From contig JAHLWH010000184.1 in NCBI GenBank assembly GCA_019058015.1, forward strand, positions 1 through 12,820: a DNA stretch of 12,820 nt. The letters run 5' to 3'. Within the stretch, counting starts at the first letter, position 1. Each line of letters opens with the position of its first letter. Below the pieces are notes generated by a model, which saw only the letters and a list, made by a program, of their open reading frames with translations, did not search any database and was not told the DNA's origin. The translations under genes were made by a program, and so were the position numbers. The DNA is from Promethearchaeota archaeon. GTDB taxonomy: Archaea > Asgardarchaeota > Lokiarchaeia > Sigyniarchaeales > SOKP01. This document shows positions 1 to 12,820 of the stretch, one piece after another.

Positions 1-873
1 AAACAAATGAAAGAGGACATAACATATGTCGTAGAACATACTGACAAGCCTTTCGGATTAAATATTAGAACCGGAAGAATGCAACTTGACGCCCAAAATC
101 TTTGCAGAAATGTTCCAAAATTTATCATGAACAACCCAAAAATAAAAGAACAATGTATCTACGTGATTACAAGTGCTGGCTCTTCAAAACTAATATATAC
201 TAAACCTTTCCAAAGATTAAGAGAAAGCGGTTCAAATATAAAACATTTCCATGTGGCGCCAGCTCTATGGCTTGCTGATAAGTGTGTTGCTACAGGAGTT
301 GATGGTATGGTTGTTACAGGAGGAGAAGGTGGTGGTCATCAATCCTATGAGAAAGTAAGCTCATTAGTTCTTTTGCAACAAGTTAGACAAAAACATCCTG
401 ATATGCCAATAATTGCATGTGGAGGTTTTGCAACCGGTGAAGGTCTTGCCGCCGCGTTTTCTATGGGTGCTGGTGCAATCGCGATGGGCTCTAGATTTAT
501 AGCCTCAAAAGAAAGTGAATTTCACCCAGATTACAAGGATATTGTACCACCAGCAAGAGCTCAAGATACTGTTTTAGTAACTGGTTTTCTAGGACCGATT
601 AGATTATGGAAAAATAAATATGCCGCACACCATGGTCTTGTTGCAAGTAAAGAAGAAAAAATGGCTGAGGAACAGGGTTTATCATTACAACAGGTTTTAG
701 AAGAAGGAAAATATTATGAAATGATATATGATGGAAACATGGATGATGGTGCCGTGCTTTTAGGTCAAAGTATAGGAATTATGAAAAGCATTAGGAGCGT
801 ATCGGAAATAATCAATACTATAGTCTCAGACGCTGAAAAATGCCTAAAACATGCTAATACCTTAATCAATTAA
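1..873 (+). CDS. Nitronate monooxygenase / FabK-like FMN-dependent oxidoreductase (2-nitropropane dioxygenase family), 5'-truncated by the window
   Basis: Family motifs TDKPFGLN, GxEGGGH (catalytic His) and the FMN phosphate-binding segment IIACGGFATGEGLAAAFSMGAGAIAMGSRFIASKES. The frame is open from base 1 (aaa caa atg) and the usual N-terminal PIIQGxM segment is absent, so the true start probably lies upstream. Substrate cannot be determined from sequence. Confidence 0.88.
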   Translation, partial: KQMKEDITYVVEHTDKPFGLNIRTGRMQLDAQNLCRNVPKFIMNNPKIKEQCIYVITSAGSSKLIYTKPFQRLRESGSNIKHFHVAPALWLADKCVATGVDGMVVTGGEGGGHQSYEKVSSLVLLQQVRQKHPDMPIIACGGFATGEGLAAAFSMGAGAIAMGSRFIASKESEFHPDYKDIVPPARAQDTVLVTGFLGPIRLWKNKYAAHHGLVASKEEKMAEEQGLSLQQVLEEGKYYEMIYDGNMDDGAVLLGQSIGIMKSIRSVSEIINTIVSDAEKCLKHANTLIN

Positions 874-903
874 GTGTTAAAAAGCAAATTAAAATAAAAC
901 AAT

Positions 904-932
904 ATTCTCTTATTGTTTTTTTATTCTCTTTT
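904..932 (+). terminator. Putative archaeal oligo-T terminator for the flavoenzyme gene
   Basis: T-rich tract (ttgttttttttattctcttt) about 30-60 nt after the stop at 873. A-tracts at about 985-1055 give matching T-tracts on the minus strand for the convergent gene. Confidence 0.45.
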
Positions 933-1066
933 GATATATTTCTAATCTTAAACAAAAAGTAAATTAAAAGATTATTAATAACAAATAAAAAAAATCGAAT
1001 CTACAGACACTTATCATAAAAAAATTACTTATATTGATTAAAAAACAAAAATAATAAAAATTTAGA

Positions 1067-3613
1067 TTAGATTGGCCGCGAGTTCGCTTGAAATATTGGG
1101 CCAATAAATTGACTATAGAGTATTGCATAACCTTCCTCTTCGCTAATTACCGCTACTATGTCCTCATCCTTCTTTGAGGCAGGAGCAAGCAGTACTTCTT
1201 CTGCATCCCTGGTAACCGCGTAAAAATCTCCCTTGGATTTTAACTGGCGAAATTGAATATTCCCCAAGGTTTTCATTTTAGTTATAATATCACCATATTG
1301 AGCAAGATTCCAGTGTGAAGTCAATAGGAATCTGGCTGCTTTCTTTTGAAATGCAACTTGTGAGATTAATTGCAATATCTCTGGAATAACAATTGGAGTA
1401 ACGATAATAATGGAACTTTTGGTTCTATGAATTGTATCTTTAATCGCGGCTATTAACGCTTCCACACCAATTGTATGCCAAGTGTTAACCTTCTTAATTT
1501 CTGGGATTGCACTTGAAGCTTGATCAATATCATTCAATTTCTCTTCGTTCTTTTCGGCCGTTTCACTGCAATCATCTATTGAGTTCATGAATGTTAGAGT
1601 AAAATCCGCAATTGCATCCTTGACGTTTTGAATTGTGTCTTTAACCGTGTTCGAAAGGCTACTTTGCAGAGTAGTTGCATTCTCTTTATATTTATTTTTA
1701 TGATCTTCAAGCATATCAAATAGATTTTTATCTAAATCGCTGCAATCATTATTAAAGAAATTAATCTCTCCATCAACTTTAGATGTTGTAGATTGCTTTG
1801 ATCTGTCGAAATCACTTCGAATTTTGCTAAGACGCTCATCAAACATTTCTCTTTGTTTTATTCTATAATTATCACGATGGGTATCGATATCCTTTATTTG
1901 AATATTAACTTCATTTGTTACATCAGAAATTCCAGCATTAAATTTAATATCCATATCTTTAACAAAATCCTCATTTAACCTCTTCACATCAGCATCGGAA
2001 TCATTATAATGTTTTATTGTGACATTATTATGTCGTGTGATCGCCTTATTATAATCATCATGATGTTGATGTAGGGAAGTTTCCAATGAATCTTTTAATT
2101 TTAAAGAAGTATCTGAACAGTGTTTTACACCTTCATCTATAGTAGAATCCACTTCACCTACGAGGTCATTTGCAAGAGGTCCCATATCTGAGTCAATTGT
2201 ACTTTGTGCTCTTGAATTTAAATCTGTTGTTTGCTTACTAAATTCCTCATTTTCTAAAGAAATGGTTGTTGTTACATCGTTTTTTAAATCTCTCGTAGTT
2301 TTAGAAGTATCTTCAATATATATCTCAGTTGATTGTGAAAATTCTTGCTTTAATTTATCCGATATTGTTTCTACTTTTTCTTGAACCTCTTTATAAATAG
2401 CTTTATATTTTTTATGTTTCCCAGCGAAAAGCGCTTTAAAAGCAGCACCTCTCTTTTTTAATTCAGACGATAGATCAGTGAGTTTTTCACTAGTGGTTAC
2501 TAAATTGTCCATTAATGTAAGAGTAGTATCTCTAAATTGTTTAACTTGGTTCTCTAGAGTCTTATGACGATTTTCTACATGATCCTTAATCCTTTCTTGA
2601 AGTTGTGTTGATGTTTTATTTAATGTGGATATATGTTCCTTAAACAAGGTATCAATTCTCTCTTTCAAATCAACAATGACCTTATTCATTTGATCCATAT
2701 ATTTTTCTAAAATTTTCTCCATCTTTGGTTTAAGATCTGCAGCCTCATCCTTATGATGATCAACATGAGCATCTAAATCCTTTTTCAATTCGGTCTCTAA
2801 GTTTGAGATTCTATTTAAAAAATCATCAAGTAAGGCTTTTACGATTGAATTAATATCATTTTTTGCGGTTGTTGTTCCATTCTCAGAAGTATCAACGAAA
2901 GTTTTAGAGATATTTTTAACAGTTTCATTAAGTGTGTTAAGTATGTTGTGAAAATTAAATTCTAAAGTTTTCGTTGCTTTATTATGGGTTTCCGAGATTT
3001 TATCTAATTCAGAATTTACCTCATAATCCAATTCATCAATATCACTCTTTAACTCAGAATAATCTTTATCAACTGTTCCATGCAACTCATTTTCAACAGA
3101 CTTTAATGTATCTGTAAGCCTCTTGTTTGCTGCGTCAATTTTTTCTTTCTTATAGGTTTCCTTTTTGTCAGAATCGACAAAAAAATCATTAATTTGAGTC
3201 TCAACAGCGTTTGTAACTTCATTTATTGTATTATCCTGAATACCTTCCAAAGTTTCAAAGCGATTACTTTGATCAGCAAGAACATCATCCTTAGTTTTTG
3301 ATATCTCATCTCTTAAAACTTTAGATTGCTTTATAAATAAGTCAAAAAATGGTTCAAGCGGAATATAGCGATCCACAATACCAGGAATTTTCTTTAAAAA
3401 TCCTTTACTTACTAAATCGGCCGTGATTTCTGTGAATTTCTGAAGATCCGCTTCTAAACTTTCAAACGCAATATCTTTATCTTTATTTATATACATATAA
3501 ACTTGACTTATCGTAGCGCGTGGAAGCCTTAGAAAAGTTAAATAAACACCAATCATATCTTCGGTAAAACCATATTGCGTAAATATTTCCTTCGTAAATT
3601 CTTTTAGCGACAT
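1067..3613 (-). CDS. TrmB-like wHTH + very long coiled coil + degenerate PLD-like C-terminal domain protein (848 aa), function unknown
   Basis: Residues 1-88 match the TrmB N-terminal pattern (YGFTEDMIGVYLTFL..., LVSKGFLKKIPG, RYIPLEP). Residues ~89-702 are charged and helical, nearly Pro-free, with 11-residue hydrophobic periodicity. Residues 711-848 match the TrmB C-terminal/PLD-like pattern (TWHTIGVEALIAAIKDTIHRTKSSIIIVTP; FYAVTRDAEEVLLAP). No Walker A motif or TM helix seen. Confidence 0.75.
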   Translation of the reverse strand: MSLKEFTKEIFTQYGFTEDMIGVYLTFLRLPRATISQVYMYINKDKDIAFESLEADLQKFTEITADLVSKGFLKKIPGIVDRYIPLEPFFDLFIKQSKVLRDEISKTKDDVLADQSNRFETLEGIQDNTINEVTNAVETQINDFFVDSDKKETYKKEKIDAANKRLTDTLKSVENELHGTVDKDYSELKSDIDELDYEVNSELDKISETHNKATKTLEFNFHNILNTLNETVKNISKTFVDTSENGTTTAKNDINSIVKALLDDFLNRISNLETELKKDLDAHVDHHKDEAADLKPKMEKILEKYMDQMNKVIVDLKERIDTLFKEHISTLNKTSTQLQERIKDHVENRHKTLENQVKQFRDTTLTLMDNLVTTSEKLTDLSSELKKRGAAFKALFAGKHKKYKAIYKEVQEKVETISDKLKQEFSQSTEIYIEDTSKTTRDLKNDVTTTISLENEEFSKQTTDLNSRAQSTIDSDMGPLANDLVGEVDSTIDEGVKHCSDTSLKLKDSLETSLHQHHDDYNKAITRHNNVTIKHYNDSDADVKRLNEDFVKDMDIKFNAGISDVTNEVNIQIKDIDTHRDNYRIKQREMFDERLSKIRSDFDRSKQSTTSKVDGEINFFNNDCSDLDKNLFDMLEDHKNKYKENATTLQSSLSNTVKDTIQNVKDAIADFTLTFMNSIDDCSETAEKNEEKLNDIDQASSAIPEIKKVNTWHTIGVEALIAAIKDTIHRTKSSIIIVTPIVIPEILQLISQVAFQKKAARFLLTSHWNLAQYGDIITKMKTLGNIQFRQLKSKGDFYAVTRDAEEVLLAPASKKDEDIVAVISEEEGYAILYSQFIGPIFQANSRPI

Positions 3614-3659
3614 TAAAATTTCACTTATAATAGGATTACTTTATTTGTGTTTATTGTTA

Positions 3660-3705
3660 AATAATATTTAATTTTACATAATTAATAATATTTAATTTAT
3701 AATTA
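3660..3705. repeat. Direct repeat of 15 bp (AATAATATTTAATTT) with 24-bp period in the divergent promoter region
   Basis: Exact copies at 3660-3674 and 3684-3698, each followed within 0-3 nt by ATAATTA. Background is very AT-rich, so significance is modest. Confidence 0.4.
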
Positions 3706-3979
3706 TTTCTTACTACTTTCGCAATTTTATCTTTTTTCAATTAAAAATCCTTAATTTTTCTCCAAAAATTTAATGAATAATAGTTTTGTTTAATATAAAT
3801 CTTTTTTATTACTTTCTAATAAAAATATAATTAATAACCCGTTTTCATGGATTAAACAAAAAAATATATATATATAGCTGATTTCCTAATTCTATAACAG
3901 ATTTTAAATTATAAATTTATAATAAAGAAAATCTTCAATTTTAAATATTTAAAAGACAAATTATCTTTTAATAAAAAAT

Positions 3980-4036
3980 CCAAAAATATTAAATGATTAT
4001 ATCTAATTTAATTAAGAAAATTAATAATTAGGTGGG
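3980..4036 (+). promoter_or_regulatory. Candidate BRE/TATA promoter and Shine-Dalgarno site of the beta-helix gene
   Basis: CCAAAAATATTAAAT at 3980-3994 resembles an archaeal BRE+TATA. AGGTGGG at 4030-4036 sits 6 nt before ATG 4043. A similar ATCCAAAAAATTATAT precedes the HtpX gene at about 7635-7650. Confidence 0.4.
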
Positions 4037-4042
4037 CGAGAA

Positions 4043-7000
4043 ATGTTTTTATCAAATAAAAGAATTAGATTTAAAAGATTATTTATAGTAGTAACCATCT
4101 CATTTTCATTCTTCTTCTTTTTAAATACAGAATTTTCCGCTATGATTTATGAAAATGGAAAGTTTTACAATGAAATTAATACAGAGACAGAAAAATTAAG
4201 AATTTCAAAAATTTCAGAAATAATTCATATTGATAATAACTGGACAGATGCTAAAAATGCTGGAATATGTACGGGTTCAGGCACATATTCCGATCCATAT
4301 ATAATAGAGGATTTAATAATAGATGGCGGCGGCTATGGAAGTTGTATATCTATTAATAATACAGAAGTTTATTTTATAATCAGAAATTGTACTGGCTACA
4401 ATTCAGGGATGGAATATACAAATAGAGATGCAGGAATCAAATTAGAAAATATCAGTAATGGAACGTTAATTAATAATACTCTTTATGATAATCATTTTGG
4501 GATATATTTGTTTATAAGTCTTTTTAACAATATCTCTGAAAATATGGCAAATATTAACAGTTATGGGATATATTTGGCTGGCAGTTCTCATAATAACATA
4601 ACAAGAAACACCGCAATTAACCACTCTTGTAGTGGGATACAATTACATGAATGTTGTCATTATAATTTTATCTCAAATAATACAGTGAATTATAACCATG
4701 ATGGAATAAATATTATTAATAGTGATAATAACACTTTCTATGGAAATGTAGTAAATAATAACAAGTATCATGGAATAATTAATTCTGACAGTAATAATAA
4801 CAACTTTACAGGAAACAATATAAGAGATAATAAATTTGGGATACATATTAGCTCTAGCTTTAATAACATCCTATCGGGAAATTATTTAAGTGAGTGTGGG
4901 TTATGGATTACTGGTTGGACACTTGAAGTAGTGTCTTCACATATAATTGATATATTAAACAAAATAAATGGAAAATCATTATATTATTATACCCATAAAA
5001 AAGGTTTAATCCCAAATAATTTCTCGAATGCTGGCCAAGTCATATTAGCAAATTGTAGTAATTCTATAGTATCAAATTTAAATGTTACTTACGGTTCAAT
5101 TGGAATTTCTTTATACTATTCTAATAATATCACGGTTTCTAACGTTAATGCTTCATACAATACTTATATGGGAATATTTTTAAAATGCAGCAATAACAAT
5201 TCCCTCTTAAAAAACAATGTAAGCAACACGGATTCTTATGGCTTTCGCTTAGAAGATAGTCATAATAATAATATTTCACGAAATATTGCAAGTAACAATG
5301 TGGGATTTGGGATTATGTTATCTCAAAATTGTAATAACAATACTCTCTTTGAGAACACTGCAAATAACAACACCGGTTGCGGGATATATTTAAGTGTAGA
5401 TAATAATTATAATAGAATCTTAGGAAACACCGCATCTAACAATAATAATAATGGGATAAAATTGTTCTATTGTAAGAATAACATAATCTATGCAAATAAC
5501 ATAGCAAATAACGGTTTAACAGGGATATATATTGGAGGGAATAGTAAATATAATAACATTACTGAAAATATTGCAATAAACAATGATGATTATGGAATTC
5601 AAAACATGGGTATTAATAATACTATTTTGGGGAATAATATGACGGGTAGTGGTTTTGGGGTCTTTAGAATGGGGGACTATGGATCTCTTGAAGAAATGTC
5701 TTCAAATACAATTGATATTACAAACAATGTAAATGGAAAACCCTTATATTACTATACCAACGAAAAAGGTTTAATCCCAAGTAATTTCTCTAATTCTGGA
5801 CAAATTATTTTGATCAATTGTAACGATTCATTAATTTCAAACTTAAACATTTCTTATGGCTCAATCGGCATTTCTTTATTTTATTGTAATAATAATACAA
5901 TTTCTAACAACAGTGTATGTAAAAATAATATCGCTGGTATATTCTTAAGATATTGTAATAATAACACTATGTCGGAAAATAACGCAAGCAATAATCGAGG
6001 TTCTGTTTATAATTACGGCGGTATTCATTTAGAATATAGTAATAATAACACAATCTTGAGAAATAGTATTAATAACAACTCCTTTTATGGGATTGATTTG
6101 TATTGGGGTAATAGGAATCTAATTTTGGAAAATAACGTAACAGATAATGATTCTGGGATATCATTGAGTTTTAGTACTAATAATAATCTAACTAAAAATA
6201 ATTTAATCAGGTGTGGAGTTTTAATAGAAGGATCATCGCTTGAATTTTTTAGCTCGCATTATATAGATACGACAAATCTAGTGAATGGAAAGCTTATATA
6301 TTATTATGTAAATGAAACTAAATTAGAACCAAGCAATTATATTAATGCCGGACAATTAATTTTTGTTAATTGTAACGATTCACTTATATCAAACATAGAT
6401 ATTTCCTATAGCACTGTAGGAATTGCATTATATTTTTGTTATAATAATACAATAAAAGATAATATTATTGAACACATTTTTGTTTATGGGATGTTGGTAT
6501 TGTATGGTGAGGATAATACTTTATTGAATAATATCTTTGAATATACGGGTATAACTATATTTATGAGTAATAATAACAAAATCACAGGAAATATAATAAT
6601 TGAGAGTAAGTACTATGGATTATACCTACATGGTAGTAATGGTAATAATATCTCTGGAAACAATGCGAATAACAACAATATTGACGGGATTTATGTGTCT
6701 CATAGTAATAATAATACTTTTTTAAATAACATCGTGGAAAATAATGGACAAAATGGGATACATTTAAATTTCGCTATTTCCAATTTATTTACAGGAAATA
6801 AAATCAGTGATAATTTTGACAAAGGAATATTTGTTGATATAGAAAGCGAGAATAACTTATTTTATTCTAATTCTTTTATGAATAATTGTATTAACGCATT
6901 TGATAAGGGTGACAATAATGATTGGAATATCTCCGTTATAGGAAATTATTGGGATGATTATACTGGTGTTGATGTTAACCCTATTGATGGAATAGGTGAT

Positions 7001-7486
7001 ACACCTCATATCTTTGAAGAAGGTGTTGATTATTTTCCTATTTGGGATAGTTTAGCTCCAATAATTACTATTATAACACCAATAAATAATACTGAAATTG
7101 GAAGGACTGCTCCCACCTTTAATATTGAAATCATTGAGCCAAATTTAGATATTCTGTGGTATACTATTGATGGTGGTATGACCAATATGGTTTTTGTATC
7201 AAACGGAACCATAGATCAAATTTTATGGGAAACTCTATGGGATTCTTTATTAGAAGGTGATTCTATAACGATAACATTTTACGCAAATGATACTTTTGGT
7301 CAAATTGGTTATAATGAAGTTATTGTTTTAAAAAACATTCCTGAAGTGCCTGAAGAACCCGAAGAACCCGAAGAACCCGAGGAACCTGGTCAAGGAGGAA
7401 TTATTCTAGGATATGATCTATTTATTTTTATGGGTTGTATATTCATCTTATCTATAATATTAATTAAAAAGCGCTCTAAATTTTAA
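4043..7486 (+). CDS. Secreted, C-terminally anchored right-handed parallel beta-helix (NosD/CASH/PbH1 repeat) surface protein
   Basis: Basic + hydrophobic N-terminal signal (KRIRFKRLFIVVTISFSFFFFL), GSGTYSDPYIIEDLII cap, many GIxL..SxNNxIxxN repeats, GNYWDDY..D..DGIGDTP cap, Ig-like domain (APIITIITP...ITITFYANDTFG), PEE linker, C-terminal TM helix and basic tail. Many N-x-S/T sequons. Confidence 0.9.
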   Translation: MFLSNKRIRFKRLFIVVTISFSFFFFLNTEFSAMIYENGKFYNEINTETEKLRISKISEIIHIDNNWTDAKNAGICTGSGTYSDPYIIEDLIIDGGGYGSCISINNTEVYFIIRNCTGYNSGMEYTNRDAGIKLENISNGTLINNTLYDNHFGIYLFISLFNNISENMANINSYGIYLAGSSHNNITRNTAINHSCSGIQLHECCHYNFISNNTVNYNHDGINIINSDNNTFYGNVVNNNKYHGIINSDSNNNNFTGNNIRDNKFGIHISSSFNNILSGNYLSECGLWITGWTLEVVSSHIIDILNKINGKSLYYYTHKKGLIPNNFSNAGQVILANCSNSIVSNLNVTYGSIGISLYYSNNITVSNVNASYNTYMGIFLKCSNNNSLLKNNVSNTDSYGFRLEDSHNNNISRNIASNNVGFGIMLSQNCNNNTLFENTANNNTGCGIYLSVDNNYNRILGNTASNNNNNGIKLFYCKNNIIYANNIANNGLTGIYIGGNSKYNNITENIAINNDDYGIQNMGINNTILGNNMTGSGFGVFRMGDYGSLEEMSSNTIDITNNVNGKPLYYYTNEKGLIPSNFSNSGQIILINCNDSLISNLNISYGSIGISLFYCNNNTISNNSVCKNNIAGIFLRYCNNNTMSENNASNNRGSVYNYGGIHLEYSNNNTILRNSINNNSFYGIDLYWGNRNLILENNVTDNDSGISLSFSTNNNLTKNNLIRCGVLIEGSSLEFFSSHYIDTTNLVNGKLIYYYVNETKLEPSNYINAGQLIFVNCNDSLISNIDISYSTVGIALYFCYNNTIKDNIIEHIFVYGMLVLYGEDNTLLNNIFEYTGITIFMSNNNKITGNIIIESKYYGLYLHGSNGNNISGNNANNNNIDGIYVSHSNNNTFLNNIVENNGQNGIHLNFAISNLFTGNKISDNFDKGIFVDIESENNLFYSNSFMNNCINAFDKGDNNDWNISVIGNYWDDYTGVDVNPIDGIGDTPHIFEEGVDYFPIWDSLAPIITIITPINNTEIGRTAPTFNIEIIEPNLDILWYTIDGGMTNMVFVSNGTIDQILWETLWDSLLEGDSITITFYANDTFGQIGYNEVIVLKNIPEVPEEPEEPEEPEEPGQGGIILGYDLFIFMGCIFILSIILIKKRSKF
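4940..6445 (+). repeat. Three dispersed in-frame 189-nt (63-aa) repeats within the beta-helix gene
   Basis: Copies at 4940-5128, 5705-5893 and 6257-6445 share the consensus IDxxNxVNGKxxYYY...xxPxNFxNxGQxIxxNCxxSxISNxxxSYxxxGIxLxxxxN. Copies 1 and 2 are similar at DNA level (aaaaaggtttaatcccaaRtaatttctc). Confidence 0.9.
7340..7387 (+). repeat. 9-bp coding tandem repeat (CCYGARGWR x5) encoding the PEV-PEE-PEE-PEE-PEE-P linker
   Basis: cctgaagtg cctgaagaa cccgaagaa cccgaagaa cccgaggaa cct read directly from the sequence. Confidence 0.9.
7400..7486 (+). other. Loki-CTERM-like C-terminal sorting segment
   Basis: IILGYD + hydrophobic helix LFIFMGCIFILSIILI + KKRSKF. This is the tripartite layout of archaeal sorting signals such as PGF-CTERM and resembles the IPGY-type Loki-CTERM, with Leu in place of Pro. 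Confidence 0.7.
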
Positions 7487-7495
7487 AATCATATC

Positions 7496-7517
7496 TATTT
7501 TTTTTAATTATTTTTTT
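7496..7517 (+). terminator. Putative oligo-T terminator
   Basis: Two T-runs (tatttttttaattattttttt) starting 10 nt after the stop at 7486. Confidence 0.55.
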
Positions 7518-7717
7518 AATAATTCCCAATTTAGTTAAGCATTTAAAATAGCAAATAAAACAAATTAAATTAGGAATAATTGTCCCTCTTTGCAGTAATA
7601 GAAAAAAAATAATAAAAAATGGATCTAAAATTGAATCCAAAAAATTATATTCTCGTTTAATTTCATATTTCTATAACAAAATAATCATAAACAAATCTAA
7701 ATAAAAATATGTGATAA

Positions 7718-9406
7718 ATGATGGGCTATAAAATTCGATCCGGCTTCATGTTATTTTTCCTATTTGCACTGCTTTTCGCAATCATAAATATGATTGGTTG
7801 GTGGCTTAATTGGAGCCTATGGTTTATGATCGCTATAACACTCGCCATAATCGGTTTTCAATACCTTATTTCGCCATATATCATCGGTTGGATTTACCGG
7901 ATTGACTGGATTCCGTTTGACCAATATAAAAGTCAATATCCCCATCTTGCCGAGGTCGTTGAAGCTCATATGAGAAAATTTCACATTCGAACACCACGAA
8001 TGGGCTTAATTGACGATGGAAACCCTAATGCCTTCACGTTTGGTCACCATAAAAATAATTCCCGCGTAGTAATTACCTCCGGAATTCTACAGCATCTTAA
8101 TAAAAAAGAACAAGCATCAGTCGTTGCTCATGAAATGGGTCATGTAGTTCATTCTGATTTCATAATTATGACATTAGCTAGTGCAATTCCGGTACTCCTT
8201 TATGTAGTAGCGAGATGGTGTTTTTTTGCTGGACGCTCTACTACACGTGGAAGGAGTGAGAAGGGTGGATATATCGGTTTAGTACTTTTAGTTATTGGTG
8301 TGCTTTCTTACTTTGCATATTATTTCGGATACTTGATAACATTGCTTATCTCCAGATTCAGAGAATACTACGCTGACGAAAATAGTGCCGAAATGATGGA
8401 AAATCCCAACTATTTATCAACTGCATTAGTCAAGATAGCCTACGGACTTCTTGAAGCTCAAGATAAAACATCTGAAATGTATAAATCAAAAGTTCATACA
8501 TTACGATCACTAGGTATCTATAATAAAAAGGATGCAAAAAAATTAGCATTAGCAAGCGTAGGCGCCTCTGGCGGTTTCTCCCAGGAGAACATTGAGGCGG
8601 CAGCGGCTTGGGATTTACATAATCCTTGGGCTAAATATTATCAAGTGTTTAGCACACACCCCCTTCCTGCAAAAAGAATTTTAGCACTAAATAAACGATG
8701 TGCTGAATTTAATGTAAAACCTGAAATTGATCTCTCAAGAACTAAGGAAAGAGCGGAAGAACAAGCTGGAAAATCTTTATGGGATCAATTCTTAGCTGAC
8801 TTATTCTGGTTATGGCTTCCTTCATTAGTATTTATCTCTTGTGTTGGATTCACGATTTTGTGGATTATTAACTTAATATTTAGTTATTCTACATTGCTGC
8901 TCGGAATAAATATATTATTCTTTTGGGCAATCGGTTTCTATCTTATGGGATTAGCCGTTATCGCTAGGACACTTTATAAATACAGAGGAAGTTTCCAGCC
9001 TTATACAATTGCAGAATTAGTTACTAACGTGAAAGTAAGTCCAATACGTCCAGTTGCCACAGTTCTTCAGGGTAAGATAATCGGAAGAGGGATTCCAGGA
9101 TTGTGGTATTCAGAAGACCTTGTGGTTCAAGACGAGACAGGCTTAATTACTGTGGATTACAGATTTGGATTGAGGATTGTCGATTTCTTCTGGGCAATTA
9201 TGCGAGTTGATGAATTAATCGGTCAAAACGTTCAAATTTCCGGCTGGTATAGACGTGCTCCTACACCATACGTGCAAGTGAACTACATTCTAACTGAAAG
9301 TGGAAGGAAATTTAAAAATTACTCGAAACACGTGACATATCTCAGCTCTATTATCTATTTTGGAATCGGATTACTTCTTTTCTGGTTGGCATTTAATATA
9401 TTTTAA
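7718..9406 (+). CDS. htpX: HtpX-like membrane zinc metalloprotease (peptidase M48) with C-terminal TM + putative OB-fold extension
   Basis: Two N-terminal TM helices, PNAFTFG, HEMGH zinc motif (nt 8129-8143), SRFREYYAD (third ligand), ALVKI and FSTHP motifs. About 210 extra C-terminal residues beyond the canonical HtpX length. Confidence 0.88.
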   Translation: MMGYKIRSGFMLFFLFALLFAIINMIGWWLNWSLWFMIAITLAIIGFQYLISPYIIGWIYRIDWIPFDQYKSQYPHLAEVVEAHMRKFHIRTPRMGLIDDGNPNAFTFGHHKNNSRVVITSGILQHLNKKEQASVVAHEMGHVVHSDFIIMTLASAIPVLLYVVARWCFFAGRSTTRGRSEKGGYIGLVLLVIGVLSYFAYYFGYLITLLISRFREYYADENSAEMMENPNYLSTALVKIAYGLLEAQDKTSEMYKSKVHTLRSLGIYNKKDAKKLALASVGASGGFSQENIEAAAAWDLHNPWAKYYQVFSTHPLPAKRILALNKRCAEFNVKPEIDLSRTKERAEEQAGKSLWDQFLADLFWLWLPSLVFISCVGFTILWIINLIFSYSTLLLGINILFFWAIGFYLMGLAVIARTLYKYRGSFQPYTIAELVTNVKVSPIRPVATVLQGKIIGRGIPGLWYSEDLVVQDETGLITVDYRFGLRIVDFFWAIMRVDELIGQNVQISGWYRRAPTPYVQVNYILTESGRKFKNYSKHVTYLSSIIYFGIGLLLFWLAFNIF

Positions 9407-9410
9407 TAAA

Positions 9411-9442
9411 AATTAATTTTTTTTATTCCTTTTTTATTTTTT
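9411..9442 (+). terminator. Putative oligo-T terminator between convergent htpX and V4R-like genes
   Basis: Three consecutive T-runs (attttttttattcctttttttatttttt) directly after the stop at 9406. Confidence 0.55.
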
Positions 9443-9462
9443 ATAAAATTGCCTCATTCTTT

Positions 9463-9936
9463 TTAAAATATAGCGTTGTGTATTTCTCCTAGTTGGTCCT
9501 TTAGATCTAAATTTAAATCATATTCACATAGTTGACCGCCATCCCGAAGAATACAATTCTTTAACTCTATGTGATATCCATTAACAGGCTTAAATTCTTT
9601 AAGAAATCCAATTGTATAAGGAATACAGACAATTTCCAAAAATCTTTCCCTTTTTGAAGGATTATAAGAGCCTCCAATTGGACAAAACTGATAAGGATGT
9701 TTGATTCTTATATTGAACTTTTTTTCACTTACTTTTTCTACTTTTACTTCTGCTCCTAATATTTCATACAAATCTCTTAAAGCCTGCTCTAAAGACTCTA
9801 TTTTTCGATCTTTGTAGATTTTTGCCAATTTACTACCTAATCGTGTTGATATACTTCGAGGTAGGTTCTCTCCGCCAAGATTTATCATTTCACTAATATA
9901 TGCATGAAAAAACTTTAACGCATCTTGTTTGTTCAA
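9463..9936 (-). CDS. Stand-alone V4R / methanogen output domain (MetOD1)-like protein, probable Zn-binding
   Basis: Helical N-terminus with RLGSKLA, then Cys85 (FCPIGG), Cys104 (VCIPYTIGFL), Cys128 and Cys137 (NCILRDGGQLCEY), the spacing typical of V4R-like domains. TTG start with GGAGATG (SD-like) 8 nt upstream. Confidence 0.72.
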   Translation of the reverse strand: MNKQDALKFFHAYISEMINLGGENLPRSISTRLGSKLAKIYKDRKIESLEQALRDLYEILGAEVKVEKVSEKKFNIRIKHPYQFCPIGGSYNPSKRERFLEIVCIPYTIGFLKEFKPVNGYHIELKNCILRDGGQLCEYDLNLDLKDQLGEIHNAIF

Positions 9937-10254
9937 CTTAAATACATCTCCAAATAATTTATTTAGTTCAAATCAAATATTTTTAAATTATCTTATACCA
10001 AATAACACTTTTTATCTGTTTTACAAAGAAATTTATTATTATTTAAAGGTTTATTTTGTAATTACCATTTTGATTGATTGCAACAAACAAGTAAACGCTT
10101 ACATAAATGTAAAAATATCATTTCGCCTATTTTTTAAAATAAAACAAATCAGAATTAATCAATATTGAATTTTTTTTTCTTCTCATTTTAAAAATATTTA
10201 TATTTATTTAGAGTGAAATAGAATTAAAAATTTAAATGAAATATATGATAAATT

Positions 10255-11628
10255 ATGGAAAATAAAAAATCAGATAAATTGAGTAGGAAAAATTTATTAG
10301 GATATGGATTTGGGGCAATTCCTGCAGGATTATTTATGTATGTCTTCAATCTTAAATACATAGAACTATTCTATAATGATTTACTTTTGCTCCCAATATA
10401 TTTTATAATTGGACAAGTCATATACATGACAATAAACGCTCTGAACGACCCGTTACTCGGACAACTTTCGGATCGGACTAATCGAGAAAAGTGGGGAAGT
10501 CGTAGGTTAATTTATATTAAATACGGCGCCCCTATTTGGGCAATAGCATTCCTGCTTATATGGTTTCCTTGGAGTTACACTGATCAAATTATAATTTTTA
10601 TTCATTTTACAATTAGTATTTGCTTATACGACACAATGTTTACGCTCGTTGTTCTTGCTTGGATGGCAGTATTACCAGAAATGACTTCAAGTATTGATGA
10701 GCGGAATAAGGCAAATTTTGTCAGCTTACTTATAGGAGCTATAGTTGTTGTGCCTTTTTTGCTCATCTTGGGAGCGATGGAGGCAACTTCTTTAGAATTT
10801 CAAATTGTAACGATTTTCATAGCAATTATTTCAACTGTATTTGCGGTGCTTTGTTCTTATATGTGTGAAGAAAAACCACAGTTTCAAAAAGATGAGTCAT
10901 TTCCATTATGGAAATCTATAAAAAAGACCGTGAGATTAAAATCGTTTTTACTCTTTATGGCATATAATTTCTGTGGACTCCTTATTGGAAGCATAGGTTT
11001 AAGTTATTTGTTTGCATATGAATTTATTCTGGGTTTAAGCTCTACGATGACTATGATTATCTATTTCTTAATATTTATTTTTATAGGCTATAGTGCTTAC
11101 ATTGTTTGCATGAAACTACGACCAAAATGGGGTATGAGAAAAGTTATTTTAAGGTTTGGCATATTGCGGGCTATAGGTGGTTTAATTATATTTATAATTG
11201 CGTTAATACCGGGATTAGAATTATTACTATGGATTGGCTTTACTTGGACAACCTTTTTCGCTGGATATGGAATATTTACAACCGGATCTTTAATGGCACT
11301 GTCTATGGATGAAGACGAGGTAAACCAAGGAACTCGTAGAGAAGGAATGTTTTTAGGAATAAATGCTCTCTTTACAAAACCAGCCGCCAGTATTGGGCCT
11401 GTGATTGCAACTTTAATTTTTCTTGCTTTTGGGTTCGTTCAGGGCGCAGATACTCAATCAGCCGAAGCATTAATAGGCATAAAAATATTATTTCTACTTG
11501 TTCCAGCAATACTTGCGGCGATTAGCCTAATATTCATTTACTTCTATCCTTGGCACGGCGAAAAGCTTGAGGAGATGAGAAGAAAACTCGAAGAAATACA
11601 TAAAAAGAAACTTGAATCCGTCCGATAA
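10255..11628 (+). CDS. MFS transporter, glycoside-pentoside-hexuronide (GPH, MelB-like) cation symporter family
   Basis: NALNDPLLGQLSDRT..WGSRRLIY motif, AVLPEMTSSIDER, DEDE..GTRREGMFLG and C-terminal FYP; about 11-12 hydrophobic segments. Substrate unknown. Confidence 0.92.
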   Translation: MENKKSDKLSRKNLLGYGFGAIPAGLFMYVFNLKYIELFYNDLLLLPIYFIIGQVIYMTINALNDPLLGQLSDRTNREKWGSRRLIYIKYGAPIWAIAFLLIWFPWSYTDQIIIFIHFTISICLYDTMFTLVVLAWMAVLPEMTSSIDERNKANFVSLLIGAIVVVPFLLILGAMEATSLEFQIVTIFIAIISTVFAVLCSYMCEEKPQFQKDESFPLWKSIKKTVRLKSFLLFMAYNFCGLLIGSIGLSYLFAYEFILGLSSTMTMIIYFLIFIFIGYSAYIVCMKLRPKWGMRKVILRFGILRAIGGLIIFIIALIPGLELLLWIGFTWTTFFAGYGIFTTGSLMALSMDEDEVNQGTRREGMFLGINALFTKPAASIGPVIATLIFLAFGFVQGADTQSAEALIGIKILFLLVPAILAAISLIFIYFYPWHGEKLEEMRRKLEEIHKKKLESVR

Positions 11629-11675
11629 AATCTAGCTTAGAAATAAATCAAAATATATTAAAAAAAACTTTTTTC

Positions 11676-11924
11676 TTATTTTTTTCCTGATACCAAACGT
11701 TCTCCTTTCTGCTGGTGCAGCTTTTCGAGATCAATTTCAAGTTTTTTTAGTATTTCATTATCAACTGGGTAAAAGTAAATAAAAACAAGCGCAAATATTA
11801 AAAATATTTGAGGAACGAGAAAGAAAAGGCATTTAATCCCTACTATGACTGATTCCGATTGGACATCTCTCGAACCGCCTGTAACATAAAAAGTTGCGGT
11901 TAAAATGAAAGTGGTTATTATTGG
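11676..11924 (-). pseudogene. C-terminal remnant of a paralogous GPH-family MFS transporter (not in the ORF track)
   Basis: Manual translation: PIITTFILTATFYVTGGSRDVQSESVIVGIKCLFFLVPQIFLIFALVFIYFYPVDNEILKKLEIDLEKLHQQKGERLVSGKK*. This aligns with the neighbour's C-terminus PVIATLIFLAFGFVQGADTQSAEALIGIKILFLLVPAILAAISLIFIYFYPWHGEKLEEMRRKLEEIHKKK. No in-frame ATG before an upstream TAA at 11993-11991. Confidence 0.85.
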
Positions 11925-12082
11925 ATCTTTTAGATGAATTAAATTTGTATGTAAAGAAATTAATTTTCCGAAAAATAAGATATAAAAACATTATTAAATT
12001 TATGGTCCCAAAAAAATAACAATTTTATATATAAGAAAATATAATATAATTTTGTTGGATGAAGATTCAGAGATGAAATTAA

Positions 12083-12331
12083 ATGAAAAATACAAAAATT
12101 TGGCTATTTTTACTATCTATTTTTATTTTGTATCTGAGTTTGTTATTACAAGAACATAATAAAATTTATAATAAACAAGAGGAAATGAACCCTGGGTATA
12201 TTTCAATAGCATTAGACTCATTAGATAATAATTATTTTGCTGGAGAAATATATAAAATAGAGGAGAAAGGTTATGATATAGTTATAGTTAAAAGAGGAAA
12301 TAAATTGTTTAATAAAATATATAAAGTATAG
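12083..12331 (+). pseudogene. Short ORF: signal peptide + single SBBP/beta-propeller-like blade, probably a truncated secreted protein
   Basis: MKNTKIWLFLLSIFILYLSLLL signal-like segment, then GYISIALDSLDNNYFAGE...GYDIVIVK, resembling the G.SIAxDSxxNIYxAG...DxxxVK blade pattern, followed by an early stop. Confidence 0.5.
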
Positions 12332-12336
12332 ATAAA

Positions 12337-12820
12337 ATGGTAATAATGCGAAATAATGAGATTAATCGAAAAATAATTGTTATAATGCATATTGTATTAT
12401 TTCTTATGCCAGCATTAATAGCTCTTATTCAAAATGATATTCATCTTCATAATAATGAGTTCATTGATTTCTTTCCAATCAAGCAGTCGGACGGTAGTAT
12501 AGATGTTAAAATTGAAATGGTTGATTGGGAGACACAACGTATTGATGTTGAAACTCATCCATACGGTCATCTTCAAATTGATGCATTGGTTAAAGAAAGT
12601 TACAAGTTAAAATTTAAGCTTACAAACTTGACAGATGACCCAATCTCAAATTCGATAATGTGGATGCACTTAGGTTTTATGCCTCAGAGTAAAACTAAAT
12701 TTCTCAATTTTCATGGTCCAGCAATGGCACCAAATGAAATGTTTGAAAAGCCATTAATTTATCAATGCTATGATGGAGATTACTATGGACCCTATTGGTG
12801 GATTTACGGTGTGACAGATG
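12337..12820 (+). CDS. Hypothetical secreted/membrane-anchored protein, 3'-truncated by the window (not in the ORF track)
   Basis: Open frame of 161 codons from ATG 12337 (alternative ATG 12346) to the window end: MVIMRNNEINRKIIVIMHIVLFLMPALIALIQND...PIKQSDGSIDVKIEMVDW...YKLKFKLTNLTDDPISN... Basic + hydrophobic N-terminus followed by beta-strand-like segments. Confidence 0.8.
   Translation, partial: MVIMRNNEINRKIIVIMHIVLFLMPALIALIQNDIHLHNNEFIDFFPIKQSDGSIDVKIEMVDWETQRIDVETHPYGHLQIDALVKESYKLKFKLTNLTDDPISNSIMWMHLGFMPQSKTKFLNFHGPAMAPNEMFEKPLIYQCYDGDYYGPYWWIYGVTD

Follow-up and report, generated by a model that had tools for sequence, protein, structure and literature searches.

A predicted fold-back rod protein with TrmBL2-type end domains in a Promethearchaeota archaeon

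The locus and its rod gene

The stretch of DNA analysed here, called the window, comprises the 12,820 nucleotides of contig JAHLWH010000184.1 (positions 1 to 12,820; assembly GCA_019058015.1) from a Promethearchaeota archaeon. The gene under study encodes a protein of 848 residues, referred to below as the rod protein, in which a TrmB-type winged helix and a PLD-like domain are separated by a very long helical insert. The insert is predicted to fold back on itself as an antiparallel hairpin, forming a rod with both end domains at one end and a basic, aromatic loop at the other. A preliminary description, made from the letters of the DNA alone, had read positions 1067-3613 as one open reading frame (ORF) of 848 codons without stating its strand. 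The reading is correct and the strand is minus; the plus-strand frame of the same region has many stops. The start of the protein is sound because its first residues are conserved in all aligned homologues. The gene stands alone, as a monocistronic unit, in an AT-rich window (G+C 22-37%) and converges with a nitronate-monooxygenase-like gene. The window also encodes an M48 peptidase and an MFS transporter. The features of the rod gene are listed in Table 1.

Table 1. Features of the rod gene and of its upstream region, in window coordinates
Feature	Position	Strand	Evidence
Whole rod ORF, 848 residues plus stop	1067..3613	-	Translation, ATG start; sole full-length copy in genome
TrmB-type winged helix-turn-helix, residues 1-88, net charge -2	3350..3613	-	PF01978, homologues, model, superposition
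N-arm, residues 89-388, continuous hendecad helix, net acidic	2450..3349	-	DSSP helix 89-388; period 3.66; net charge -18 (residues 95-385)
N-arm indel zone, residues 177-220, absent from 751-residue forms	2954..3085	-	Conservation 0.33-0.35 (residues 181-220)
Conserved N-arm joint, residues 261-320, invariant H283, H287, P296	2654..2833	-	Conservation
Turn/tip, residues 389-403, glycine-bracketed aromatic patch, then lysine run	2405..2449	-	Helix breaks at 389 and 398-400; composition in 120 homologues
C-arm, residues 404-701, continuous hendecad helix, net acidic	1511..2404	-	DSSP helix 401-701; period 3.68; net charge -25 (residues 406-700)
Conserved C-arm joint, residues 461-540, facing residues 261-320; G495, C499, H517	1994..2233	-	Conservation
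C-arm indel zone, residues 564-607, mirror partner of residues 177-220	1793..1924	-	Conservation 0.31-0.39 (residues 561-600)
TrmB/TrmBL2-type PLD-like domain without HKD motif, residues 709-848	1070..1489	-	Model, VIA, Foldseek, profile
AT-rich intergenic region between the rod gene and a divergent NosD-like gene	3614..4042	.	Low G+C; promoter and terminator scan at shuffle level

The helical insert

In the full-length AlphaFold model the insert consists of helices 89-388, 390-397 and 401-701, a total of 613 residues. About 610 helical residues with an 11-residue (hendecad) periodicity had been predicted, citing five 11-mers that correspond to residues 302-356, and the model and the spectrum of the sequence bear out both the length and the period. 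The hydrophobicity spectrum peaks at 3.66 residues in the N-arm and at 3.68 residues in the C-arm, and the signal is coherent over the whole of each arm. The spectral power at these peaks is 396 and 241, compared with 9 and 10 at a period of 3.50. At a period of exactly 11/3 the power is 395 and 194, which none of 2000 shuffles of either arm reached when each shuffle was maximised over periods of 3.3-4.0. Hydrophobic residues occupy about three of every 11 positions, forming the narrow seam that is typical of coiled coils, and several segments have four or five such positions per 11.

The two arms are matched in length. The N-arm (residues 95-389) minus the C-arm (residues 403-700) gives a difference of -3 in all 120 homologues of at least 700 residues, a set from which the 481-residue fragment P0011 was left out, and in 25 of 25 sequences of the aligned set. 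The arm lengths themselves fall into eight classes, from 251/254 to 335/338 residues. A tree built without the insertion and deletion (indel) zones requires at least seven changes of length class, most parsimoniously 12. Above the shortest class, the arm increments are 22, 29, 40, 44, 62, 73 and 84 residues, each of which is, by calculation, at most 0.1 turn off a whole number of 3.67-residue turns, so that the hydrophobic seam stays in phase. Exact matching through at least seven changes, together with the conserved rod surfaces described below, points to selection acting on the rod itself.

The indels occur as same-sized pairs at mirror positions in the two arms, all with i + j of 781-785. 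They comprise 44 residues at 177-220 and 564-607, 4 residues at 198-201 and 580-583, 11 residues at 229-239 and 545-555, and additions of 18 residues after residue 201 and after residue 582. In the homologue P0121 the 4- and 11-residue pairs follow each other in reversed order between the arms, an arrangement that antiparallel pairing requires and parallel pairing forbids. In the full-length model the chain turns at about residue 392, within a helix break at 389-400. When the model is aligned by VIA with known antiparallel hairpins, the matched ranges are mostly symmetric about residue 392 (233-551 with 2ch7, 266-517 with 5xg2, 264-521 with 5nnv and 279-506 with 3g6b), although off-centre rows exist, such as 208-552 with 9a65 and 315-484 with 4mh6. 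The Z-scores of 9-13 in these alignments are common to any long helical pair, and the alignments were used solely to read the topology of the model. The mirror correlation of conservation was also considered as a test of topology and was rejected, as the value at i + j = 784 (r = 0.89) is matched by that of a parallel arrangement with an offset of 383 (r = 0.92).

An antiparallel hairpin with about 300 residues per arm had been proposed in the preliminary description. The arms of 295-300 residues, their covariation in length, the mirrored indels and the turn of the monomer model near residue 392 all agree with it, and it is highly probable that the insert is an antiparallel fold-back hairpin rod. 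With a rise of about 0.148 nm per residue the predicted length of the rod is about 44 nm, close to the earlier estimate of about 45 nm.

The end domains

A TrmB-like winged helix-turn-helix had been assigned to residues 1-88. Residues 1-100, scanned alone, match PF01978 (TrmB) over residues 13-87 with an E-value of 4.8e-4 and a score of 20.4 bits, which is under the curated cut-off of 25.6 bits, and the rod ORF is not among the matches of a genome-wide PF01978 scan at E <= 0.001. PF01978 matches 23 of the 25 aligned homologues at E <= 1, with a best value of 4.7e-7, and distant relatives clear the cut-off with 39.0, 38.3, 35.1 and 34.3 bits. The AlphaFold model contains the elements of a winged helix, namely helices 18-29, 35-42 and 50-69 followed by strands 73-76 and 82-85. 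These matches in the homologues and the fold of the model uphold the assignment. Residues 3-128 superpose on residues 2-115 of TrmBL2 with a Z-score of 9.9 over 112 residues (VIA). Winged-helix proteins of the Fur, BlaI/MecI and MarR types are tied with TrmBL2 within one Z unit in the same comparison.

The net charge of the winged helix is at the upper end of the range of its family (-12 to -2, median -5). Within the head, mean conservation is lowest, at 0.36, over residues 41-60, which contain the N-terminal half of the recognition helix. DNA binding cannot be assumed, because the domain is net acidic and this half of its recognition helix is poorly conserved. Judged by these properties, classical reading of DNA by the winged helix is doubtful.

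The C-terminal domain is poorly modelled in the full chain, and residues 690-848 were refolded with a 37-row alignment, A2, that includes distant relatives and stand-alone domains. The resulting model has a predicted local distance difference test score (pLDDT) of 92.6 and a predicted template modelling score (pTM) of 0.81. In VIA superpositions it fits residues 110-241 of TrmB (2f5t) with a Z-score of 18.3 and a root mean square deviation of 1.9 Å over 130 residues, a second TrmB structure (3qph) with a Z-score of 17.4, and residues 123-264 of TrmBL2 with Z-scores of 15.5-16.2 and deviations of 2.4-2.6 Å, the value for 5box being 16.2. Proteins of the PLD superfamily rank next, from a Z-score of 15.3 downwards, and share the fold at Z-scores of 10-15. 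The PLD-like domain that had been placed at residues 711-848 is also recovered by Foldseek, where the top nine rows for the model are all TrmBL2 or TrmB (E 6.9e-10 to 1.4e-8) and the first is TrmBL2. Among PDB sequences, 3qph is the first match of the A2 profile of the domain, with an E-value of 0.0072.

PF11495 matches the C-terminal domain with an E-value of 0.038 over positions 3-122 of the 233 positions of the profile. Positions 123-233, and with them the second, sugar-binding subdomain of TrmB, are unmatched, and the protein ends at residue 848. Across the 37 aligned C-terminal domains the sole invariant residue is D803, variation is slight at P740, N785 and E806, and no histidine or lysine is conserved. 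The domain therefore lacks the catalytic HxK(x)4D motif and is not an HKD enzyme.

TrmBL2-type PLD-like domains also occur fused to TPR repeats, zinc ribbons and HhH motifs (P0145, P0147 and P0177). Others, included in alignment A2, are stand-alone proteins of 130-230 residues, several of which have lysine-rich C-terminal tails.

The tip and the conserved surfaces of the rod

The composition of the turn is strictly maintained. Residues 386-405 contain three or four aromatic residues (F, W or Y) and have a net charge of +4 to +8 in each of the 120 homologues, and in 111 of these they include no acidic residue. Glycines at the midpoint are conserved in the full set of 120. Between residues 95 and 700, 20-residue windows with a net charge of at least +5 occur at the tip only. 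In the protein described here the tip forms a small amphipathic helix that leads into a lysine run, whereas most relatives have a patch of four aromatic or hydrophobic residues flanked by glycines, with four lysines after it. This aromatic and polybasic loop, which was absent from the preliminary description, is the best clue to function that the sequence offers.

Identity is about 50% over the whole length of the protein between Asgard groups and across orders. Conservation along the rod, calculated from 41 sequences of at most 80% identity, is 0.69-0.90 at the neck, made up of residues 81-160 and 641-700, and at a joint formed by residues 261-320 and 461-540. In the indel zones it is 0.31-0.39. 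Surface positions of the neck and the joint have conservation values of 0.70-0.77, compared with 0.48-0.62 towards the tip, which suggests contacts along the rod.

The joint lies about 70-130 residues from the tip. Its P296, invariant and embedded in a helix, is opposite G495, and H283, H287, C499 and H517 are also invariant. The pLDDT dips to about 57-63 in this region although it is highly conserved. The joint may act as an elbow, or it may be where a metal or a partner binds.

Distribution and relatives

The rod protein has a single full-length copy in its own genome. In a survey of 400 genomes of the phylum, 207 contain a match at E <= 1e-10. Full-length matches are present in 122 of the 134 genomes of the organism's own family and in 17 of the 19 genomes of the other families of the order, that is, in 139 of 153 genomes of the order, which makes the protein close to universal in this major Asgard order. 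Five genomes of other classes have matches mainly on the C-terminal domain, in open frames of 477-1916 residues and with several per genome. When 1.84 billion representatives were searched with a profile, 408 proteins matched at E <= 0.001. Among the best 150 of these 408, local profiles detect the C-terminal domain in 129, the N-terminal domain in 61 and both in 47, and the inserts of the 47 two-domain proteins are 68 to 1674 residues long. The tip motif is at the exact midpoint in close subfamilies (P0122-P0126) of up to 1050 residues. The organism names that the sources give for the relatives all belong to Asgard lineages. In the ESM Atlas the rod family is found in Promethearchaeota, and its next neighbours, at 0.76-0.77, are ordinary TrmB regulators of 263-270 residues.

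Five further ORFs with the C-terminal domain are present in the same genome. Two paralogues on other contigs, L111 (301-2343; 681 residues, open at the 3' end) and L112 (310-2502; 730 residues), have a common layout of an apparent zinc-ribbon-like N-terminus, a winged helix, a helical insert of about 255 residues, the same C-terminal domain and a tail rich in lysine and proline. They were considered as rods of the same kind and rejected, since their insert is rich in glycine and proline and has no coherent hendecad period. A 293-residue protein encoded at L113 combines a coiled coil with the C-terminal domain and has no winged helix. The only strong match among the 31 genomes of family f13 is G041:C363:2-1816 (51% identity, E 7e-179). 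It reaches at least one end of its contig, and the contig may be mis-binned.

Genomic neighbourhood and transcription

The gene upstream of the rod gene is on the plus strand, at 4043-7486, and is divergent from it across an AT-rich spacer of 429 bp. It encodes a protein of 1147 residues made of repeated NosD/right-handed β-helix units (PF05048, E 3e-81; PF13229, E 2e-73), with a hydrophobic N-terminus, a PEEPEE-type linker and a hydrophobic anchor at the C-terminus. Three other ORFs of the window have no match in Pfam or PADLOC; they lie at 9463-9936 (minus strand, 157 residues), 12083-12331 (plus strand, 82 residues) and 12337-12819 (plus strand, at least 161 residues). A promoter and terminator scan of positions 800-4100 found no more than was found in shuffled sequences, with a tool that models bacterial promoter types and is uninformative for an archaeon.

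The neighbourhood is different in the clade of 751-residue homologues. In 58 of 80 loci of this clade a divergent gene, at a median distance of 322 bp upstream, encodes a protein of about 230 residues with a signal peptide and a transmembrane segment, and in 53 of 80 loci a neighbour encodes a protein with a transmembrane segment and a winged helix. These conserved neighbours are absent from the window described here, and in the 751-residue clade they may be plain synteny among kin within one order. The upstream regions of this clade (L033, L038, L047, L062 and others) have in common a TATA-like box, TTTTGAAAATATTATTA, about 120 nt before the start. About 25-30 nt downstream of the box they carry GGAATTCAT, often with a second, inverted GAATTC, and GGAG precedes the ATG. 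The clade to which the window belongs has no GAATTC elements.

Metatranscriptome contigs from two runs of one study cover parts of the rod gene (about 1486-3226) at 94-97% identity. Such libraries may contain DNA, the runs holding these contigs were found by means of the gene itself, and the uncovered parts are uninformative. The contigs are a weak hint that a close relative's copy of the gene is transcribed.

A possible function and its alternatives

The reading that is favoured, by a modest measure, is that the rod protein is a cytoplasmic structural strut or tether of fixed length with a docked tip, probably on the membrane. That it acts as a strut or tether rather than as a gene regulator is reasonably probable. 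Docking on the membrane by means of the tip, as the composition of the loop would suggest, is a serious possibility that falls somewhat short of being probable.

The rod protein would have evolved from a TrmBL2-type protein, consisting of a winged helix, a linker helix and a PLD-like domain, by expansion of the linker helix into two helices of about 300 residues each. The two arms are predicted to pair in antiparallel fashion, in the register i + j of about 784, and to form a coiled coil of 11-residue repeats about 44 nm long. At one end, this fold-back would bring the winged helix together with the PLD-like domain in a head like that of TrmBL2. The opposite end would expose the conserved loop, in which aromatic and hydrophobic residues between glycines are followed by lysines. 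The tip might dock on the membrane, at its anionic cytoplasmic face; some other surface is a less likely docking site. The rod would then serve as a stiff spacer of selected length, and the head might hold a partner, which could be a protein or DNA bound in a non-classical manner. Like other proteins of the TrmB family, the molecule is probably dimeric. A dimer prediction for two copies of residues 300-492 with alignment A1 gave scores of 0.36, 0.36 and 0.34 (the mark being 0.42 and the controls 0.00), which speak neither for nor against a dimer.

Several points weigh against this reading. The full-length model, calculated with a 25-row alignment, has low global confidence (pLDDT 68.6, pTM 0.28), and its topology was read from alignment ranges. 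An extended antiparallel homodimer would account for the paired indels just as well as an intramolecular hairpin does. The polybasic and aromatic loop would be just as suitable for binding to nucleic acid, to a partner protein or to another tip. In crude scans of distant long relatives a basic and aromatic loop at the midpoint is not evident, so that the tip rule is limited to this orthologous group. No conserved operon partner that would point to a function is found in the 80 related loci and the window. Finally, the charge argument against DNA binding is weak because the value of -2 lies inside the range seen in the same genome (-2 to +7), where the seven winged helices that match PF01978 have net charges of 0, +2, +7 and -2 (four above the cut-off) and +5, 0 and -1 (three below it).

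The preliminary description had suggested a chromosome-membrane tether, a chromatin organiser or a filament-forming protein. Five other explanations have to be weighed. The nearest solved relatives of both end domains include TrmBL2, a chromatin protein according to its PDB titles, and the matched antiparallel arms resemble those of SMC, Rad50 and MukB. The rod protein might accordingly be an SMC-like chromatin organiser without an ATPase, the head of which binds DNA non-specifically while the polybasic tips bind DNA as well or associate with each other, thus bridging 45-90 nm. This is rather unlikely, given the net acidic winged helix with its variable recognition-helix half, the net charges of -18 and -25 of the arms adjoining the head and the absence of a hinge or CxxC hook at the turn; moreover, three or four exposed aromatic residues suit a lipid or protein surface better than DNA. 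The TrmB/TrmBL2 ancestry of the domains would also fit an ordinary TrmB-family transcription factor, in which the long arm is a dimerisation or sensing module, possibly holding the regulator at the membrane until release. The gene is monocistronic and divergent from a gene for a surface protein, the NosD-like protein here and the signal-peptide and transmembrane protein in the 58 loci mentioned above, and autoregulated regulators often have such an arrangement. The identity of the divergent neighbour changes from clade to clade, however, and the protein lacks the sugar-binding subdomain of TrmB. Its recognition helix is acidic and shows little conservation, whereas identity across orders is about 50% in the rest of the protein, and the exact length matching and the conserved rod surfaces point to selection on the rod. 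A transcription factor is therefore an unlikely explanation.

The unusual conservation of surface positions at the neck and the joint, and the segments with four or five hydrophobic positions per 11 residues, might be taken as signs of a cytoskeletal element, with rods assembling laterally or head-to-tip into a filament or lattice. Such an element is decidedly unlikely: self-assembly is not in evidence, side-by-side packing of such strongly acidic arms is disfavoured unless counter-ions or partners take part, and the rod lengths come in discrete matched classes, not as open-ended repeats. An arrangement without any fold-back would consist of two extended chains that run antiparallel over about 88 nm, so that the heads lie at opposite ends of the rod and the basic and aromatic motifs at its centre. 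Equal arms and mirror-placed indel pairs would be required there too. The hairpin is favoured over this extended dimer because the glycines at the midpoint are conserved in every one of the 120 homologues, a helix break is predicted there, the monomer model folds back at about residue 392 and the two halves of TrmBL2 are reunited exactly as they are joined in TrmBL2 itself. The extended dimer is quite improbable. The remaining explanation takes the arms as 11-residue amphipathic helices that open from a bundle onto membranes or lipid bodies, in the manner of apolipoproteins. PF01442 matches all of the 25 homologues (best E 6.2e-20), and ApoA-IV and ApoA-I, which have the same 11-residue period, are the top matches among PDB sequences (E 8e-5 to 1e-3). 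A lipid binder of this type is nevertheless very improbable. The rod protein scores 46.4 bits where the cut-off is 90, hydrophobic residues take up only about three positions in 11, and the arms, which are strongly acidic, keep their exact pairing. A signal peptide is missing, and apolipoproteins have nothing that corresponds to the head of winged helix and PLD-like domain.

By calculation the rod is about 44 nm long here and about 38 nm long in the 751-residue forms, and it could exceed 100 nm where inserts reach 1674 residues. The relatives might then be an Asgard family of ATPase-less, length-graded rulers that are docked on the membrane by the tip, keep a head of regulator ancestry at a set distance from it and so position chromatin or another cytoplasmic structure, an extension that we regard as fairly unlikely. 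If it were true, these proteins would have a role in prokaryotes analogous to membrane-chromatin tethering and might conceivably be its forerunner in the lineage leading to eukaryotes. On the favoured reading of the rod protein itself, a small DNA-binding scaffold would have been turned into a rigid spacer, and the length would have been kept through at least seven two-arm changes. The architecture of Asgard cells, including nucleoid placement, protrusions and membrane-proximal structures, is an open question for eukaryogenesis. A conserved strut of 38-45 nm with a putative membrane-seeking end is a candidate that can be expressed and could be sought in existing Asgard tomograms. The rod family is also a clean natural example of coiled-coil length evolution by phase-preserving, mirror-paired indels.

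Comparison with known systems

SMC, Rad50 and MukB have, like the model of the rod protein, a long intramolecular antiparallel coiled coil that unites both termini as a head. The model superposes on the arms of Smc5/6, Smc, MukB and Rad50 with Z-scores of 8.9-13.0, which is the usual range for any long helical pair. The absence of an ABC ATPase, noted in the preliminary description, is borne out: neither this nor any other NTPase is found in Pfam and NCBIfam scans of the rod protein or in a Pfam scan of 25 homologues. The NCBIfam model for an 'archaea-specific SMC-related protein' has a cut-off of 300 bits, and the rod protein scores 14.1. At the apex there is a loop of about 12 residues, which contains neither cysteine nor a globular domain, so that neither an SMC hinge domain nor a CxxC hook is present. 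Furthermore, SMC-type arms contain interrupted heptads, whereas the rod protein has a regular hendecad.

The signalling domain of chemotaxis receptors (MCPs; 2ch7) is an antiparallel helical hairpin and aligns with residues 233-551 of the model with a Z-score of 12.3. According to Alexander and Zhulin (2007), the length classes of MCPs reportedly arise by symmetric insertions in both arms, the same rule as in the rod family. MCPs, however, are heptad-based, membrane-spanning receptors with a kinase-binding tip. The MCP family is absent from Pfam scans of the rod protein and of 25 homologues, and there is no sequence relationship.

Apolipoproteins (PF01442) have the 11-residue periodicity in common with the rod protein, but they possess a wide lipid-binding hydrophobic face and other end domains, both of which the rod protein lacks. 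No signal peptide is evident at its conserved N-terminus. When the full-length profile or the single sequence is compared with the PDB, the matches are to apolipoprotein-type repeats only, and TrmB appears with the C-terminal domain profile alone. The distant relative P0170 passes the PF01442 cut-off on its repeat content (114.2 bits). ZorA matches only with the tail part of its profiles, from about position 290 (E 4e-11), with 34.9 and 25.1 bits where the cut-offs are 190 and 250, and the MotA/ExbB-type membrane domain of ZorA is not found in the rod protein. A role in a defence system was considered and rejected, as PADLOC gives just ZorA-tail and LmuB coiled-coil matches and none in the five neighbouring ORFs. 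The rod protein is not an SMC or Rad50 protein, an apolipoprotein, a ZorA or an HKD enzyme.

A hendecad coiled coil used as a stiff strut in archaea is reported for the peripheral stalk (E-G) of the A/V-type ATPase (PMC6131620, PMC3293630). This stalk is a parallel heterodimer of two short proteins in a known machine, and no homology is expected. No description of a TrmB-headed fold-back rod was found in searches of full-text literature outside subscription journals, and the earlier statement that no characterised protein has this architecture is not contradicted within that coverage. Passages of a study of Asgard chromatin proteomics that has a category 'TrmBL' (10.64898/2026.07.02.735847) and of PMC10869688 do not concern the rod protein.

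The sugar-sensing TrmB regulators (3qph, 2f5t; PF01978 and PF11495) belong to the same winged-helix family and provide the best structural match to the C-terminal domain. The rod protein differs from them in lacking the second, sugar-binding half and in having a linker of 613 residues in place of one helix. TrmBL2 (5box, 5bpd, 5bpi and 5bqt, named in the PDB titles as an archaeal chromatin protein) has the same order of domains, a winged helix, a helix and a PLD-like domain at which the chain ends, and it appears to lack the sugar-binding subdomain too, since its chains of 253-263 residues end with the segment 123-264. The terminal domains had been attributed to TrmB and TrmBL2, and both Foldseek and VIA agree with this. 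TrmBL2 joins segments 2-115 and 123-264 directly, whereas about 580 residues are inserted at this point in the rod protein. The sequence identity is only 13-15%, the rod protein adds the aromatic and polybasic tip, and its winged helix is acidic and varies in the region that normally reads DNA. TrmBL2 is a protein of Thermococcales, whereas the named organisms that have relatives of the rod protein are all Asgard. The rod protein is thus a member of the TrmB family by both of its end domains, but not by the short linker of that family, and its set of domains is that of TrmBL2 rather than that of the sugar-sensing TrmB.

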